A stretch of DNA of 64,000 nt from an uncultured Candidatus Saccharibacteria bacterium (GCA_964608465.1 CAZSNI010000001.1:16215-80214), one strand, 5' to 3'; positions 1,099 through 49,237 are shown, counted from the stretch's first letter. Numbers and translations: made by a program. Notes: generated from the sequence alone by a model not told the origin.

Positions 1099-1130
1099 GA
1101 TACAAAAAAATTTCCGCACTTGCATTGCGT

Positions 1131-1280
1131 CGAACTAACATGATTTCAGAGCATCCGCAGGCCGTGAGCATGGTTTCGTCAACGACTCTATGTAATAAGA
1201 GCTCATTGACGAATCACGACCGAGGACCAGAATAAAACTTTCGCAGGAAAGTTTTATGTCTCTGAAATCATGTTAGTTCG
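1131..1280. repeat. perfect 21-bp inverted repeat pair bracketing the sRNA-like element
   Basis: cgaactaacatgatttcagag (1131-1151) and ctctgaaatcatgttagttcg (1260-1280). Confidence 0.8.
1144..1258 (+). ncRNA. candidate structured sRNA, copy 1 (paralog of 29982-30085)
   Basis: tttcagagcatccgcaggccgtgagcatggtttcgtcaa...ttgacgaatcacgaccgaggaccag plus terminal hairpin aaaactttcgcaggaaagtttt. The motif is shared with the second locus and shows compensatory changes. Confidence 0.35.
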
Positions 1281-1287
1281 TAAGCTT

Positions 1288-3192
1288 TTACCTAATTTCA
1301 AAACCTGACTGAGCCTTAAGTGTCTCATACACCGGATTCATCACCGCATTTATTTCTTCCTCTGTTAAAGTTCTATCGTTTGCTTGGAAAACAAGTCTGA
1401 ATGCATATGAAGTTTTGTCTGCTTTCGTAAATTTATCAAACATAGAAAATCTCACCACGATATCTGTAAGTTTTTCTTTTATCAAACTCTCTACTGCTTC
1501 CCCACTTACTTCGTTTGGTACAAAGACCGCAACATCGCGCACTGCAAAAGGAAAAGCAGAAATAGTTTTGAACGCCAAAGACTTTTCATTTTTTACCCAA
1601 AGGTCTACTGGGTACTCCTCTACTGGCCCCAATTCTTTTGCGACTCTAGCAATATCAAATTCAGCAACACCGCCAACGACAGAAACATTTCCAACAGAAA
1701 CCCCAAGTCCTTCTTCTAGACCTTGAATTGTTTTTGCTATTTCTTCGTCTACACTTAGTTTCTTTGATTTTGGAAACTTAACTCCGAGACAAAGATGTAG
1801 TTCCTCGCCCTTTGCATTAAATACTTTTCCGATTTCAAAAAGTTTTACCTCACTCTCCCCTAACAAATCTAAATATTTGAAATTTCTTTCAAGAGACTCT
1901 TCCACAGCACCACTTAGGTGACTTCGAAGAAACTTTTTATCTCCAGAGAGAGGATTTTCTATTTCCACTTCCCCACTAGGTGTCATTGCGTATGTATAGA
2001 TTTCAGTAAATCCAAGACTTCCCAAAATTCTTCTTGTTTTCTCCGCAATAAATATTTCTTGGTTAACTTTTACTTTTGCAACAACTTCCAGTTTTGCAGG
2101 CTCGACATTTTCATATCCGAACAGTCTGCCGATTTCTTCTACAACATCTTCCTCGATTTTAATATCAAGTCTCTCAAGGGGTGCAGTTACTTTTACTTTG
2201 TCACTTTCTATTAACGCCTTAATATTTTGTCGTGCTAAAAGTTCTACTGCCTTGTCGCCTGATACAGAAACCCCCAGCATTTTAGAAACTTTATCTAGCG
2301 CAACAGTAACTGTCGTTTCTTTTTGTGGATTTTTGTTTAGGTCTACCATTCCTACCACTGTTCCCCCTGCTAGTTCAGTTATGTTTTGTACTGCATATGG
2401 TAAAACACGATCCATAAGACTTTGAGCTATTTCATTTTCAAATCTATATGAAGCATCTGTTCTGACACCCAAAGCTTTTGCAGTTTTTCGAATACTTACA
2501 GGATCAAAAGCAGAGAATGACAAAATAATATCCGTTGTTGTATCACTGACTCCACTATCTTTTCCTCCCATTACTCCCGCCACATCCAAAGGCTTGCTTC
2601 CATCTGCTATAACCATATGAGTAGTATCAAGAGTGTATTCTTTTGTATCTAGCAAAGTGATTTTCTCTCCCTTAGCAGCATCTCGAATATTAAACTCGTA
2701 TTGACCTTTTTTATTAGTAGATACTTTTGATGCATCGAATGCGTGCATTGGTTGGCCGAAAGCAAAAGTAAGATAGTTTGTCATATCTACTATGGCGTTA
2801 ATAGAACGTGAGCCTTGAGTCGCTAGTTTTTCTTTGAGCCACGCAGGACTTTCTGTAACTTTTACTCCTGTAACTAAAACGAACATCTGTCGTGAACAAC
2901 TTTTTGTACTTATGTTTAGATTGATTTTGTCTGTAACTGGAAGAGAAACTTTAGGAAGAAGTTCTTTTCTTTTTAGATTCAAAACACTAGCGACTTCAGA
3001 AGCAACGCCGTAGTGCGACAAACAGTCGTGCGCGCGGTTTGGAAGAATTTTTACGTCCATAATTTTGTCGTCTCCATGCTCTTCAACTCCCTCGATTTCA
3101 AAAGAATGCATAGTCAAAGCCTCCACCACAGTTTCTACTGCTGGTAGTTTATCTTCGATATATTCTTGTAACCAGTTATACGAAATTTTCAT
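1288..3192 (-). CDS. pheT: phenylalanine--tRNA ligase beta subunit
   Basis: 634 aa. N-terminal tRNA-binding region, B3/B4 and FDX-ACB-like C-terminus (MNPVYETLKAQSGFEIR). Immediately downstream of pheS. Confidence 0.9.
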   Translation of the reverse strand: MKISYNWLQEYIEDKLPAVETVVEALTMHSFEIEGVEEHGDDKIMDVKILPNRAHDCLSHYGVASEVASVLNLKRKELLPKVSLPVTDKINLNISTKSCSRQMFVLVTGVKVTESPAWLKEKLATQGSRSINAIVDMTNYLTFAFGQPMHAFDASKVSTNKKGQYEFNIRDAAKGEKITLLDTKEYTLDTTHMVIADGSKPLDVAGVMGGKDSGVSDTTTDIILSFSAFDPVSIRKTAKALGVRTDASYRFENEIAQSLMDRVLPYAVQNITELAGGTVVGMVDLNKNPQKETTVTVALDKVSKMLGVSVSGDKAVELLARQNIKALIESDKVKVTAPLERLDIKIEEDVVEEIGRLFGYENVEPAKLEVVAKVKVNQEIFIAEKTRRILGSLGFTEIYTYAMTPSGEVEIENPLSGDKKFLRSHLSGAVEESLERNFKYLDLLGESEVKLFEIGKVFNAKGEELHLCLGVKFPKSKKLSVDEEIAKTIQGLEEGLGVSVGNVSVVGGVAEFDIARVAKELGPVEEYPVDLWVKNEKSLAFKTISAFPFAVRDVAVFVPNEVSGEAVESLIKEKLTDIVVRFSMFDKFTKADKTSYAFRLVFQANDRTLTEEEINAVMNPVYETLKAQSGFEIR

Positions 3193-10220: not shown

Positions 10221-10271
10221 TGTATTTAGTATAGCAAAAAAGCGAGTTTGACTCGCCTTTTCACAAAACAG

Positions 10272-10541
10272 TTACTTAGCTGCTTTCTTAGTTTTAGCAG
10301 CTGCCATTTTAGTTTTGAATCTCTCCACTCTTCCAGCTGTATCCATGATCTTCTCGTTTCCAGTGTAGAAAGGGTGTGAAGAACTTGAAATTTCAAGTCT
10401 GTAGATAGGGTATTCCTTTCCGTCCTTTGCCTTGCCTTTTTCTGTAGAATTTACAGTAGACGAAATAACGAACTCAGCTCCGTTTGAGTTGTCGATAAAT
10501 AGAACTGGTCTATAGTTTTGTGGGTGAATGTCTTTTTTCAT
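10272..10541 (-). CDS. rpmE: 50S ribosomal protein L31
   Basis: MKKDIHPQNYRPVLFID... is a typical L31 N-terminus. 89 aa. Confidence 0.85.
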   Translation of the reverse strand: MKKDIHPQNYRPVLFIDNSNGAEFVISSTVNSTEKGKAKDGKEYPIYRLEISSSSHPFYTGNEKIMDTAGRVERFKTKMAAAKTKKAAK

Positions 10542-29505: not shown

Positions 29506-29817
29506 TTACCATGTTCGGCCACCTCTATCGTTTCCACGATCGAAGCCTCCTGTTCTAGGTGCTCTAGGTTCCATAGGTCGAGCTTCATTTACTGTAAGCT
29601 TTCGTCCATCTAGTTCCTGACCATTCCACTTTGCAATTGCTGCATCAGCATCTGCATCGTTTGCGAACTCAACGAATCCGAATCCTTTTGATCGGCCTGT
29701 CATTTTGTCCATGATAATTGTTGCAGAAGTTACTTCTCCAACTTGTGCGAACGCATCCTTAAGACCGTCGTTACTTGTTGAATATGAAATTCCTCCTACG
29801 TATAGCTTCTTTGCCAT
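29506..29817 (-). CDS. RRM-type RNA-binding protein with Gly/Arg-rich tail
   Basis: RNP-2 LYVGGI and RNP-1 KGFGFVEF. C-terminal RGG-like tail. Confidence 0.8.
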   Translation of the reverse strand: MAKKLYVGGISYSTSNDGLKDAFAQVGEVTSATIIMDKMTGRSKGFGFVEFANDADADAAIAKWNGQELDGRKLTVNEARPMEPRAPRTGGFDRGNDRGGRTW

Positions 29818-29923
29818 TATATTTTCTCTAGTCTTTATTTTAAACTGTAAGGCGACTAGCTTCTCTCCTTTTCAACTTTCTCTTCGAAAATACGAAAACA
29901 TTGAGATACTTACATTACCTACT

Positions 29924-29952
29924 ATTATACTCCTGAGAGTCCCAAAAGTCAA
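29924..29952 (-). promoter_or_regulatory. near-consensus sigma-70 promoter driving the RRM gene (about 100-nt 5' UTR)
   Basis: Minus strand reads TTGACT, 17 bp, TATAAT. Confidence 0.55.
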
Positions 29953-29981
29953 GGTGCCAAAATGTGCCTATAAATAGTGTT

Positions 29982-30085
29982 TTTCAGAGCCTCCGCAGGC
30001 CGAAAGCATGGTTCCGTCAAGGCACCCCGTTCTTGACGGATTTGGCCGAGGACTAGCTAAAAAGACCCGCTGGGGTCTTTTTAGG
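29982..30085 (+). ncRNA. candidate structured sRNA, copy 2 (paralog of 1144-1258), with intrinsic terminator
   Basis: tttcagagcctccgcaggccgaaagcatggttccgtcaagg...cttgacggatttggccgaggactag, then agacccgctggggtcttttt. A TATAAA -10 element lies 7 bp upstream. Confidence 0.35.
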
Positions 30086-30111
30086 AAGCGATGAAAAATA
30101 CTATTTAGATA

Positions 30112-30834
30112 TTACTTCACTGAGACGGTTTTCATGATAACAGGCTGTACAGGCTTATCATTCGCTCCAGTCTGCACATTTGCTATCTTATCTACAACAT
30201 CCTGTCCCTCAACGACTTTACCGAAAATAGTATAAGCGTTTGGTAGTGGGTAGTCAGCATGCATTATGAAAAACTGACTGCCGTTTGTATTTGGACCTGC
30301 GTTCGCCATAGCAACTACACCTTTTTTATACCCTGCCTTATATGAAGCTGTGTTTGGGTTTAGTTCATCTTCAAACTTGTAACCAGGACCACCTGTTCCG
30401 TTTCCACTTGGGTCTCCACCTTGAATCATAAAACCTTTTATAACTCGGTGAAATGTAAGTCCGTTATAAAAACCTTTGTCAGCTAGTGTTACAAAGTTCT
30501 TCACTGTGTTTGGTGCATCCTCGTTGTAAGTTTCAAAAACTATTTTTCCGTAATTTGTTTCTAATGTGATCATGTTTGTTTTTTTGTTTGGGCTAATTGT
30601 ATTTGTTGTATTTGTGTTTGTAGTTGTATTTCCTTCTGGTGGCAAAGTGCCATCTTCGAAAACTGGTGTGGTTGTAGAGTACTCAAGCAAAGTATCATCC
30701 AAACCTGGGTCTACTACTTTTTTATCTTCCTTAAACAAATAATATCCTCCAACTATTACTAAACCTGTTACTATAAATCCCAATAATAAATTTTTCATAA
30801 AAAGAAGTTTAACATAAAAATAAAAGGAAACCAC
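30112..30834 (-). CDS. ppiB: cyclophilin-type peptidyl-prolyl cis-trans isomerase with N-terminal TM and Thr/Asn-rich linker
   Basis: FHRVIKGFMIQGGDP...GPNTNGSQFFI. Confidence 0.85.
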   Translation of the reverse strand: MVSFYFYVKLLFMKNLLLGFIVTGLVIVGGYYLFKEDKKVVDPGLDDTLLEYSTTTPVFEDGTLPPEGNTTTNTNTTNTISPNKKTNMITLETNYGKIVFETYNEDAPNTVKNFVTLADKGFYNGLTFHRVIKGFMIQGGDPSGNGTGGPGYKFEDELNPNTASYKAGYKKGVVAMANAGPNTNGSQFFIMHADYPLPNAYTIFGKVVEGQDVVDKIANVQTGANDKPVQPVIMKTVSVK

Positions 30835-30918
30835 TTTTTATCGCATCCCCTAATATTGACTATACTGAAAAAATAATTAGACTATATTTTGGACAAATTT
30901 CAAGGAGTCGCAAGACGC

Positions 30919-31431
30919 ATGAACAGACACGAAGTAATCAGGGCGTTCACCGAACTCGATCGCGAAGCGTTCGGGGACAAGATGCTCAAGTCGCTCGGCC
31001 TCACGGAGCGGGAACTCGAACTTCTCTTGGGGGCACTCAACGCTGTCCCCGATGACAGCTTCGAAATCCCGAACTTCAACGGCCTCGCGAAGAAGCTCAA
31101 GATCAGCAACCCACTCATCCAGATGCTCAAGAAGAAGGGCTACGTCAAGAACGGCTCTGGTCGTGGGAAGTGGGAGGTGACCGAAGGCGGGCTGAAGAAG
31201 ATGGCCAAGTCGATGCAGGTGTCGATCGATGGTGGCGAGAGAATGCCGCCGCCGGAAGTCGTCGAGCTGGAAGACGAGACTCTCCTCTGGCAGAAGTACC
31301 CCATCGACGGCATGACCCTCACGCAGATCGCTGACCGACTCAACGACATCGACAAGTCGGTCGCCGATCTCCTCGCTGAAAAGCGAGCGGTGCAGGGACA
31401 GCTTCGCAAGATGGCGACTCCGATGATGTAG
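30919..31431 (+). CDS. hypothetical 170-aa protein, GC-rich, possible HTH
   Basis: AAGGAG SD. About 55% GC. K/E-rich natural-looking composition, whereas the antisense frame is R/L-rich. Confidence 0.5.
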   Translation: MNRHEVIRAFTELDREAFGDKMLKSLGLTERELELLLGALNAVPDDSFEIPNFNGLAKKLKISNPLIQMLKKKGYVKNGSGRGKWEVTEGGLKKMAKSMQVSIDGGERMPPPEVVELEDETLLWQKYPIDGMTLTQIADRLNDIDKSVADLLAEKRAVQGQLRKMATPMM

Positions 31432-31443
31432 GGAGACAACCCA

Positions 31444-31489
31444 AGAAAAATCGAAAAGGGACTGACAACGCTCGCGCGTTGCCAGTCCC
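31444..31489. terminator. near-palindromic GC hairpin terminator between convergent genes
   Basis: gggactgacaacgctcgcgcgttgccagtccc, with a T-tract on the minus strand. Confidence 0.6.
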
Positions 31490-31510
31490 TCGTTCGTCTC
31501 GAAAGACTTC

Positions 31511-32857
31511 TTACAGATCACTCTCTTTGTACTTGTAACCAGCCGCCTCCAATCTTCTCCAGACTCTAGCGACAACCCTCTTTACGTTATCCTCGCTAAA
31601 GCCAAAATGTTTCGCGGTTTGTGAAAGCCCCTTACATGCTACGTCTGAACGACCGTAGTACGTCAGGAAAACTTCCTGTTCGACGATTGATAAGGGCTGC
31701 AACTTAGCGCCCAGTGAGCGGTAAACCTCGTCGTCCTTTTTTACGGGACTAATAGGTTTCGATTCTCTTGTGACTTCCGGAGCCAGTTCCGCAACAGAAA
31801 CATGATTACTCGGTTCTGGAACGTATGAGGCGAGTTCCTTGAGTTCGTTGAGACCTCTCACGAAGTCCCGCATCTCTCCCTTTCCCATCCTCAAGTAACC
31901 AAGAACCTTGTACTCGATCTGCCTGATGCGTTCCCGGGTAAGAGCAAACCTCTGCCCAACTTCTTCAAGTATTTTGGGATCAAAGGTTCCATCATCCAGA
32001 CCATAAAGCGCAAAGAATTTCTCAGCGTGTTTTGGTACAACACGCAGGACCTTTGCTTTTATGTTCTCCAACTTGAGCATTGCAACCTCGAGCTCCATCC
32101 GAGCCTCGACAGCTACAGCATCACTGTTGTGTCCGACGTCAGCGATAAAGTCGTTTATCACGACCTCTTCGCCATCTTTAGAAGTCCACACCGGCGTTTC
32201 CAATGACGAATCCCCATTAACAAGTTTCGCCCTTCTAACCTTCGCCAGTTTCGACTTACTCCAACCTAACGACGACATTGCTTCGTCATCGTCAGGTTTT
32301 GTACCACTCCCACCTTCGATGTTTCTCTCGAACCTCACAAGCTTTACCACATCACTGTACATGTGCTGTGGCAAACGAATGTTTCTCGAGGTGTTCGCCA
32401 AGGCGCGAGATATTGCCTGTCGTATCCACCACGTGGCATAAGTCGAGAACTTGAAACCTCTTTCCGCTTCAAATTTATCAACTGCCAACATGAGGCCAAT
32501 GTTTCCCTCCTGAATCAAATCCAGGAATTCCAAACCCCAATTGCCATACTTTCTGGCAATACTTACCACAAGTCGAAGGTTATGTCTTATCAACCTCTCC
32601 TTGAGTTTGGGGTCTCTAGTTGTTTGATACTCAGTGAACAACCTCACCTCTTCTGCTTTTTTGAGCAAAGGAAGTTCACCAGCCTCAACGAGGTAACGAT
32701 GAACGATATCATGTGGTTCTTTTGAAACCACGACGTTATCGTCAACATCTTCATCCACATCGAGTAGTTCCCAGACTTTCTCAGCCGGGATCTTGTCCAA
32801 ATCCTCTTCCAAATCATCGGGAGAGGAATAGTCTACTACGGCATCTGCCTCTGACAT
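31511..32857 (-). CDS. sigma-70 family RNA polymerase sigma factor (regions 1.2-4) with an extra C-terminal region-4-like domain
   Basis: Region 2 [39 protein letters not shown]. Region 4 [14 protein letters not shown]. Additional [15 protein letters not shown]...[12 protein letters not shown]. Confidence 0.8.
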
Positions 32858-48970: not shown

Positions 48971-49033
48971 AATAAAATTATAACAAATTATTCTTTCTGC
49001 GGATGGTACAGGACTTAAACCTTATAAACAAAG

Positions 49034-49120
49034 CGGAGAGTAGGAGATTTGAACTCCTGAGGGAATTTCTTCCCTACCCGCTTTCCAAGCGAGCGCACTA
49101 GACCGCTATGCGAACTCTCC
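49034..49120 (-). tRNA. tRNA-Ser (anticodon GGA), long variable arm, CCA not encoded
   Basis: GGAGAGTTCGCATAGCGGTCTAGTGCGCTCGCTTGGAAAGCGGGTAGGGAAGAAATTCCCTCAGGAGTTCAAATCTCCTACTCTCCG. All four stems pair. Confidence 0.8.
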
Positions 49121-49237
49121 GCTTTATTTATAAACTTTCCAACGTAGGTCACGAATAATTTTTTGCTAAAAATTTTCTTGACCACACCTCGCACCGACGT
49201 GCTCCGGTTTTGAAATGTCCCTAACCCACATTTCAAC

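Follow-up and report, generated by a model that had tools for sequence, protein, structure and literature searches.

Next to pheT in the genome of an uncultured Saccharibacteria bacterium lies an intergenic element that is almost certainly a conserved structured RNA. With a probability of about 0.6 we regard it as an independent gene for a trans-acting, stable RNA of ~150 nt (140-200 nt in the family), which would be read from the plus strand and would be one of two paralogues in the window, i.e. the whole 64-kb stretch of DNA that was analysed (64,000 nt). Judged by sequence comparison, it adds a new family to the stand-alone structured RNAs known from bacteria, with no match in Rfam 15.

The first copy of the element is enclosed by two arms, which a sequence-only reading of the window had described as a 21-bp inverted repeat. 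Indeed, the arms are complementary at 21 of 21 positions and lie 108 nt apart. Nowhere else does the 64-kb window contain a perfect inverted repeat of at least 20 nt whose arms are separated by a long spacer, and a hand estimate, using a match probability of ~0.27 per base and ~1.7e7 position pairs, puts the chance expectation for such a repeat at ~1e-5. Folding of the 150 nt of copy 1 yielded -67.8 kcal/mol compared with -31.2 +/- 3.9 kcal/mol in dinucleotide shuffles (z = -9.5), and a covariance model of the family matched positions 1133-1278 with 142.7 bits (E = 1e-34). The location between convergent genes and after a strong terminator also agrees with the earlier description: The DUF2103 gene (720-1046, +), with a GC-rich hairpin and a T-run at its 3' end (~1049-1098), is found on one side and the convergent pheT gene (1288-3192, -) on the other. 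The genes near copy 1 comprise gyrB, DUF2103, pheT and pheS. The DUF2103 gene has a strong Shine-Dalgarno sequence and encodes a 108-aa product annotated as 'predicted metal-binding'; the hairpin at its 3' end is unusually GC-rich and long, with 80 % GC in the core (1059-1083) in a genome of ~37 % GC.

A second occurrence with compensatory substitutions had been pointed out as well, and it proved to be a further copy of the same RNA. The 5' core TTTCAGAGCNTCCGCAGGCCG has just two occurrences in the window (1144 and 29982) and none in 100 shuffles. The cores of the two copies share 79 % identity, and the differences between them are compensatory pairs within helices. Copy 2, whose core begins with CAGAG at 29985, also has a closing helix of its own that had been overlooked: UAAAUAGUGUUUUUCA (29971-29986) pairs with UGAAAAAUACUAUUUA (30092-30107) over 16 bp, including one G·U pair (G29979·U30099), and its sequence is unrelated to the arms of copy 1. 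An exhaustive covariance-model scan with all filters switched off found two copies in the 64-kb window, and each related locus contains one. Copy 2 is located between the gene of an RRM protein (29506-29817, -) and a cyclophilin gene (30112-30834, -), with DUF192 also nearby. The RRM-domain RNA-binding protein (103 aa) is encoded divergently from copy 2, behind a near-consensus promoter on the minus strand (TTGACT-17-TATAAT, 29952-29924). As a partner of the RNA it was dismissed, because the adjacency exists at copy 2 only and no homologue occurs near any other family member. A little further on, the interval 31001-31500 reaches 58 % GC compared with the window average of ~37 % and overlaps the ORFs 30877-31575 (-) and 30889-31431 (+).

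In total, 23 distinct homologues were collected. Metagenome contigs contributed 17 of them, Parcubacteria genomes three and a Saccharibacteria genome one, the window copies being the other two; together with strong covariation in four helices this bears out the earlier assignment to a small-RNA family. The metagenome sequences were retrieved from JGI and ENA contigs with a corrected search pattern, checked first on the window; its 22 true matches collapse to 17 distinct sequences. The scan of genome contigs returned 35 chance matches in GC-rich genomes and one true homologue in a Saccharibacteria MAG (L024); its pattern had 7 N between CCGCAGG and GCATGG where the window copies have 6, and the taxonomic breadth is therefore under-sampled. 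Diverged members were found with pheT homologues as anchors and a covariance model built from the family. In these Parcubacteria genomes, the RNA adjoins pheT in L099, as in the window, dnaE in L101/L102 and gyrB in L104. In the following, the core set denotes the 20 sequences of the family before the diverged L099, L101 and L104 were added. Homologues of the flanking pheT and RuvC carry the names Parcubacteria, Paceibacterota or Zambryskibacteria; these names assign the window to the Parcubacteria group and other members to Zambryskibacteria or Paceibacterota. The RNA family is one that occurs, as far as sampled, in the Patescibacteria (Parcubacteria and Saccharibacteria).

Across the loci the flanking genes are housekeeping genes (pheT, gyrB, ruvC, yebC, lepA/fusA, pnp, a comM-like gene, mreB and msrA/B), and all four combinations of orientation were seen. 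We found no gene common to the neighbourhoods of the members, and the loci with called genes or Pfam annotation (~4-10 kb) contained no conserved partner protein, reverse transcriptase or transposase. The corresponding syntenic gaps of the relatives L096-L098, L100 and L103 lack the RNA, which indicates that it moves about or is not universal. Synteny with ruvC was rejected as a general feature: the RNA adjoins ruvC in L024, L060 and L077, but not in the close RuvC relatives L096-L098. The same applies to DUF2103 as a partner, since no homologue was found adjoining the RNA in other genomes and the small ORFs beside it in L101, L104, L100 and L103 share only 15-24 % identity with the DUF2103 protein of the window and are not homologous to it. 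Nor is there homology among the small ORFs that adjoin the RNA in the various genomes.

All members fold individually to one shape, a three-way junction with a long closing stem, whose parts are listed for copy 1 in Table 1. The closing stem P0 ranges from 16 to 43 bp (median ~28) in elements of 137-198 nt, and its top, UUUUCAGAG/CUCUGAAAA, is conserved in sequence in the core set. The bulge follows the consensus GC(A/U)UGG(U/C), with GCUUGGU in L099 and GCUUGGC in L101, and the second junction strand has the family form GAGGAC(N)AGA. In P3, the outer three pairs covary (UA<->CG) and the inner GUCAA/UUGAC is nearly invariant. The pairs at the base of the P4 stem are mostly A·G/G·A (tandem) in other members. 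Altogether, ~40 positions are invariant, and they are concentrated in the unpaired residues of junction and bulge.

Table 1. Positions of the predicted RNA elements in the window (numbering from the first nucleotide of the stretch).
Feature	Position	Strand	Remarks
Whole element, copy 1	1127..1285	+	~159 nt including two outer base pairs (1127-1128/1284-1285); MFE fold and closing-stem walk
P0 closing stem, 5' arm, CGAACTAACATGATTTCAGAG	1131..1151	+	21/21 complementarity; ends with CAGAG (1147-1151), invariant in the 20-sequence core set
Junction strand CAU-CCGCA	1152..1159	+	CCGCA invariant in 23/23 members
P1	C1155/G1225, C1156/G1224	+	CC/GG; never varies, so that covariation neither supports nor contradicts it
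3x2 internal loop GCA/GA	G1157-C1158-A1159 facing G1222-A1223	+	Part of arm A
P2, 5' strand GGCCGUGA	1160..1167 with 1214-1221	+	8 bp; one C·A mismatch (1162/1219)
7-nt bulge GCAUGGU	1168..1174	+	Separates P2 from P3 on the 5' strand; no variation among the 20 core members
P3, 5' strand UUCGUCAA	1175..1182 with 1206-1213	+	Covariation
Variable apical hairpin, arm A	1183..1205	+	Length and sequence not conserved; ~10 to ~50 nt (A4 columns 53-101)
3' strands of P3 (1206-1213) and P2 (1214-1221)	1206..1221	+	Fold, covariation, RNAalifold
Junction strand GAGGACCAGA	1222..1231	+	GAGGA invariant in 23/23; G1224 and G1225 pair with C1156 and C1155
P4 hairpin (arm B)	1232..1257	+	11-bp stem, loop GCAG (1243-1246), invariant closing C-G; inverted repeat
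P0 closing stem, 3' arm, CTCTGAAATCATGTTAGTTCG	1260..1280	+	Inverted repeat, covariation; two nt separate P4 from the arm
UUUU run after copy 1	1286-1289	+	Directly 3' of the element
Copy 2, same RNA	29971..30107	+	Covariance-model match (109.5 bits, E = 4e-26); fold

Some details of the fold differ in the diverged members. In the pheT-adjacent orthologue L099 (11951-12083, -), UGAUGA ... CUGA, which is box C/D-like and compatible with a K-turn, replaces CAGAG/CUCUG at the top of P0, and a tandem G·A occupies this position in L101. A box C/D K-turn was nevertheless rejected for the family, as the main family has plain Watson-Crick CAGAG/CUCUG at this position. A canonical K-turn in the basal internal loop does not fit either, because the extra nucleotides lie on the strand without the bulge. 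We also considered an alternative pairing of P0 with P4, based on CUUUUC/GAAAAG present in both in many members, and discarded it since L024, L060 and copy 2 show no covariation for it.

The fold was then judged by covariation on a MAFFT alignment of the 20 core sequences that was built without structural input (A4), and the collection of homologues with a covariation check, which the sequence-only reading had proposed, came out clearly in favour of a structured RNA: 91.6 % of the cells pair, and 32 of 49 pairs are changed on both sides. The covariation score of A4 was 0.474 compared with 0.160 in column shuffles, none of 500 reaching the observed value, and it dropped to at most 0.10 with the partners slid by 1-3 columns. 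RNAalifold arrived de novo at the same fold with 30 of 44 pairs compensatory. An alignment of all 23 sequences to the model, which is biased in favour of that model, had 38 compensatory pairs out of 48. Covariation thus firmly supports P0, P2, P4 and the outer part of P3. Double changes affect six of the eight pairs of P2 in the 20 sequences of A4 and all eight in the 23 sequences of A6, with 98 % of the cells paired, and nine of the 11 pairs of P4. In addition, the helices contain 32 G·U/U·G pairs and 10 A·C/C·A pairs, which favours an RNA read from the plus strand; a G·U is also found in P0 of copy 2.

P0 itself discriminates between an RNA helix and the end of a DNA element. Its pairs are changed on both sides at 14 of 19 positions in the 20 sequences and at 18 of 19 in the 23 sequences. 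The long closing helix proposed earlier thus stands, with arms that differ in sequence between the copies, a pairing that is kept and G·U pairs on the plus strand, and the conservation of pairing without conservation of sequence points to an RNA helix and not to a transposon end. The alternative suggestion of a MITE-like boundary fails on the same evidence. More generally, a DNA-level mobile or repeat element, be it a MITE, some other element with inverted repeats at its borders or a retron-like msr/msd with a1/a2 arms, could account for the perfect 21-bp repeat of copy 1, for two copies 29 kb apart and for a place within the pheT-gyrB region that differs, inverted, between relatives. We nevertheless consider it highly improbable. 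A transposase needs conserved termini, but the arms (CGAACTAACATGAT... in copy 1, TAAATAGTGTTT... in copy 2) are unrelated, differing wholly from copy to copy and from genome to genome. A target-site duplication is missing, the flanks ...gcattgcgt/CGAAC and GTTCG/taagctttt being devoid of a direct repeat, and the copy number is only one or two. The annotated loci, as described above, have neither a transposase nor a reverse transcriptase within ~4-10 kb. BLAST against phages and plasmids found nothing, and two pattern scans of the IMG/VR viral contigs (the first with the 7-N pattern) yielded chance matches only. A retron msr/msd in particular was rejected as no RT gene was found beside the two window copies or at the other loci, although P0 pairs both ends, a feature that is not specific to retrons.

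Transcription, strand and ends of the RNA are what we infer from sequence features. Upstream of copy 2 a candidate sigma-70 promoter on the plus strand (TTGAGA-16-TATTAT, 29901-29928) has 10 of 12 matches, and no clear sigma-70 promoter was found upstream of copy 1. In several loci a same-strand gene ends just 0-50 nt before P0. This proximity, together with the lack of a clear promoter at copy 1, makes co-transcription and processing from a longer RNA possible. Most members have a U-run at the end of the 3' arm of P0 or after it (GAGAUUUU in many of them, the UUUU of Table 1 in copy 1), so that the whole stem could be a terminator.

The hairpin AAAACTTTCGCAGGAAAGTTTT, with which the sequence-only reading had let the element end, is present as P4, which is more than a terminator. 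Four of the 20 core members, among them both window copies, have a P4 that is extended by A/U pairs and followed by U's; in the remaining 16 of 20 there is no U-run after it, and a terminator scan around copies 1 and 2 did not call P4. Conservation of loop and closing pair, combined with the rarity of the U-run, identifies P4 as a structural arm. In copies 1 and 2 it nonetheless looks like a (weak) terminator in front of the 3' arm of P0, and if it were efficient, P0 could not form. An element consisting of an intrinsic terminator only was rejected on these grounds and because of the ~40 further invariant positions.

A broader cis-acting role, as a bidirectional terminator with a long hairpin, an insulator or a site for processing or stabilising the mRNAs of the flanking genes (pheT and DUF2103 in the window), is in our view quite unlikely. 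The position of the members would suit it, as the intergenic gaps that hold them are always short and in many cases separate convergent genes or follow directly on a same-strand gene; moreover, the closing stem usually has an A-run before and a U-run after it, and P0 and P4 would fold in an antisense transcript, too. However, a terminator has no need of ~40 invariant unpaired and junction nucleotides or of a covarying three-way junction, and the DUF2103 gene already possesses its own strong GC-rich terminator. The 32:10 ratio of G·U to A·C pairs and the strand-specific core also show one strand under selection, whatever the orientation of the neighbours. A cis-regulator of the riboswitch or T-box type was rejected as well, given that about half of the loci have a convergent gene downstream, the neighbours are unrelated and Rfam gives no match.

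The earlier statement that the element matches no familiar riboswitch or housekeeping RNA holds after the Rfam check: no family of Rfam 15 reached its gathering score, and there was no meaningful match even at E <= 10. ARAGORN called only tRNA-Thr and tRNA-Ser in the window, both elsewhere than the element. Likenesses to tmRNA, 5S rRNA, SRP RNA and the CR-I of RNase P RNA were not supported by ARAGORN or Rfam and were dropped. A hidden small ORF was rejected, too. In some members GAGGA followed by GUG opens a frame of 15 aa, but L058 and the two window copies have retained neither the start codon nor the frame, and the pattern of substitutions is that of base pairing, not of codons. Among the RNAs known from other bacteria, the raiA motif, ROOL, GOLLD, OLE and HEARO are similar in being defined by covariation and conserved unpaired nucleotides, restricted to lineages and intergenic with unrelated neighbours. 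In contrast to OLE, GOLLD and ROOL, our element is much smaller, has another fold and gives no match to the Rfam models. Searches of the literature uncovered no non-coding RNAs described for Patescibacteria beyond the universal ones, and among the papers listed by text searches none described such an RNA in Parcubacteria or Saccharibacteria.

The nearest analogy, and an unproven one, is 6S RNA (ssrS; RF00013 and related models), a stand-alone gene of ~150-200 nt with an end-to-end closing stem, a hairpin on the 3' side, a bulged apical stem and sometimes two paralogues. The Patescibacteria RNA might be the counterpart of 6S RNA, that is, a rod-shaped mimic of an open promoter that would sequester the sigma-70 RNA polymerase holoenzyme and be released by templating a short product RNA, with the template running from the junction strand on the 5' side into P0. 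We rate this as rather unlikely. It would agree with the size of 140-200 nt, with the very long closing stem and the bulged apical stem and with a partly unpaired centre between the stems that carries a hairpin on its 3' side. Comparable traits are known from Bacillus 6S-1 and 6S-2, where the closing stem is long, the bubble has a hairpin on its 3' side and the genome contains two paralogues. A conserved top of P0 is what one would expect of a template for a product RNA, and among the best literature matches listed none pairs 6S RNA with these lineages.

Several observations oppose a 6S counterpart. The '6S-type' label given by the sequence-only reading remains an analogy, and membership in the 6S family is not supported by the scores or by the core, which is a three-way junction and not a large open bubble. 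None of the Rfam 6S-type models matched the window element or four other members at gathering score or at E <= 10. Of the parts of a rod shape, a closing stem of 16-43 bp and an apical stem are present, but the centre is a compact three-way junction with CCGCA/GAGGA, and the 5' junction strand has only ~5-8 unpaired nucleotides, maybe fewer via P1, which is far below the central bubble of 6S RNA (12-16 nt or more). Invariant residues in a three-way junction are more typical of a specific binding pocket. Furthermore, the closing stem of our element, unlike that of 6S RNA, is often perfectly paired for 20-30 bp, and in L099 and L101 CAGAG/CUCUG gives way to non-Watson-Crick pairs. If the 6S analogy were true, it would fill a gap in the transcription regulation of Patescibacteria.

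Two further comparisons concern parts of the molecule. With Y RNA/YrlA, the element shares a long basal stem, which in many members includes a conserved internal loop (left GUCGA, right GAGAAA), and sibling RNAs in related genomes that have the basal module in common and differ in the inner part. In contrast to Y RNA, it lacks a model match, a Ro/TROVE neighbour and a tRNA-like domain. An assignment to Y RNA/YrlA was therefore rejected: Rfam gave no match, and TROVE is not among the Pfam families listed for the annotated loci. The second comparison is with the T-box antiterminator and L15 of RNase P. The bulge of the former and the loop of the latter pair with the RCCA-3' end of tRNA, and the 7-nt bulge on the 5' strand of our element, situated between two short helices, contains an invariant UGGY. 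In contrast to the T-box, UGGY is found at the 3' end of the bulge instead of the 5' end, and a specifier, a regulated downstream gene and a T-box sequence are missing. By this analogy one could imagine a stand-alone, trans-acting sensor or binder of tRNA 3' ends specific to Patescibacteria, in which UGGY of the bulge would pair with RCCA-3' and CCGCA/GAGGA would complete the pocket. We consider this a long shot. Such an RNA may be one of a small set of siblings sharing the closing-stem module and the GAGGA junction motif.

The reading we favour, an independent gene for a stable RNA, would involve a transcription unit of its own and a product acting in trans. Most likely this product would be the RNA part of a ribonucleoprotein or else a regulator. 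The recognition surface for a protein or another RNA could then consist of the invariant residues left unpaired around the junction, namely CCGCA, GAGGA, the bulge and the loop of P4. P0 would serve as a generic packaging module in which both ends of the RNA are brought together and shielded from exonucleases. Combined with the usual U-run downstream, it might act as the intrinsic terminator of the RNA and perhaps also as a processing stem for a double-strand-specific enzyme of the RNase III type. The idea of a generic module is suggested by the free sequence and length of P0, by the stem extension of tRNA-Ser and by similar stems on two other RNAs (see below). No partner protein emerges from the gene neighbourhoods, and the idea of a ribonucleoprotein is thus without direct support. 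Much of the diversity of bacteria belongs to the Patescibacteria (candidate phyla radiation), whose genomes are minimal. An RNA kept in genomes so reduced is likely to have an important function, and this one is duplicated in the present genome and has ~40 nucleotides that are invariant from Parcubacteria to Saccharibacteria. If the RNA binds something other than the targets of 6S RNA, it would define a new ribonucleoprotein.

Long closing stems were also observed on other RNAs. A second, smaller three-way-junction RNA is located between rpmE and prfA in two Parcubacteria genomes, where it is syntenic (L101:3418-3542, -; L103:3088-3208, -). It contains the basal motif of the main family, ..UCUCGUCGA.. 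/ ..GAGRAAAGAGAC.. (right ..GAGRAAAGAGA..), and a junction of GAGGAAAA/AAGGAAAA. This RNA is missing from the corresponding gap of the window (10221-10273) and had no match in Rfam. A third structured RNA of ~165 nt lies between a pilB-like gene and ruvB (L098:1003-1168, -; L096:553-722, -); its closing stem measures ~25 bp, its multi-helix junction contains ACGAGGAC, and Rfam gave no meaningful match at E <= 10. Both RNAs carry a GAGGA or AAGGA junction motif. Finally, the window itself provides an example in tRNA-Ser (49033-49120, -; stretch 49017-49138), where a helix of leader and trailer, UUUAUAAAUAAAGC / GCUUUGUUUAUAAG, extends the acceptor stem by ~14 bp; together with this helix, the tRNA folds with -58.6 kcal/mol (z = -6.0). 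The same long-stem packaging on tRNA-Ser and on the two other RNAs is a hint that the lineage as a whole may produce or stabilise its small RNAs in this manner.
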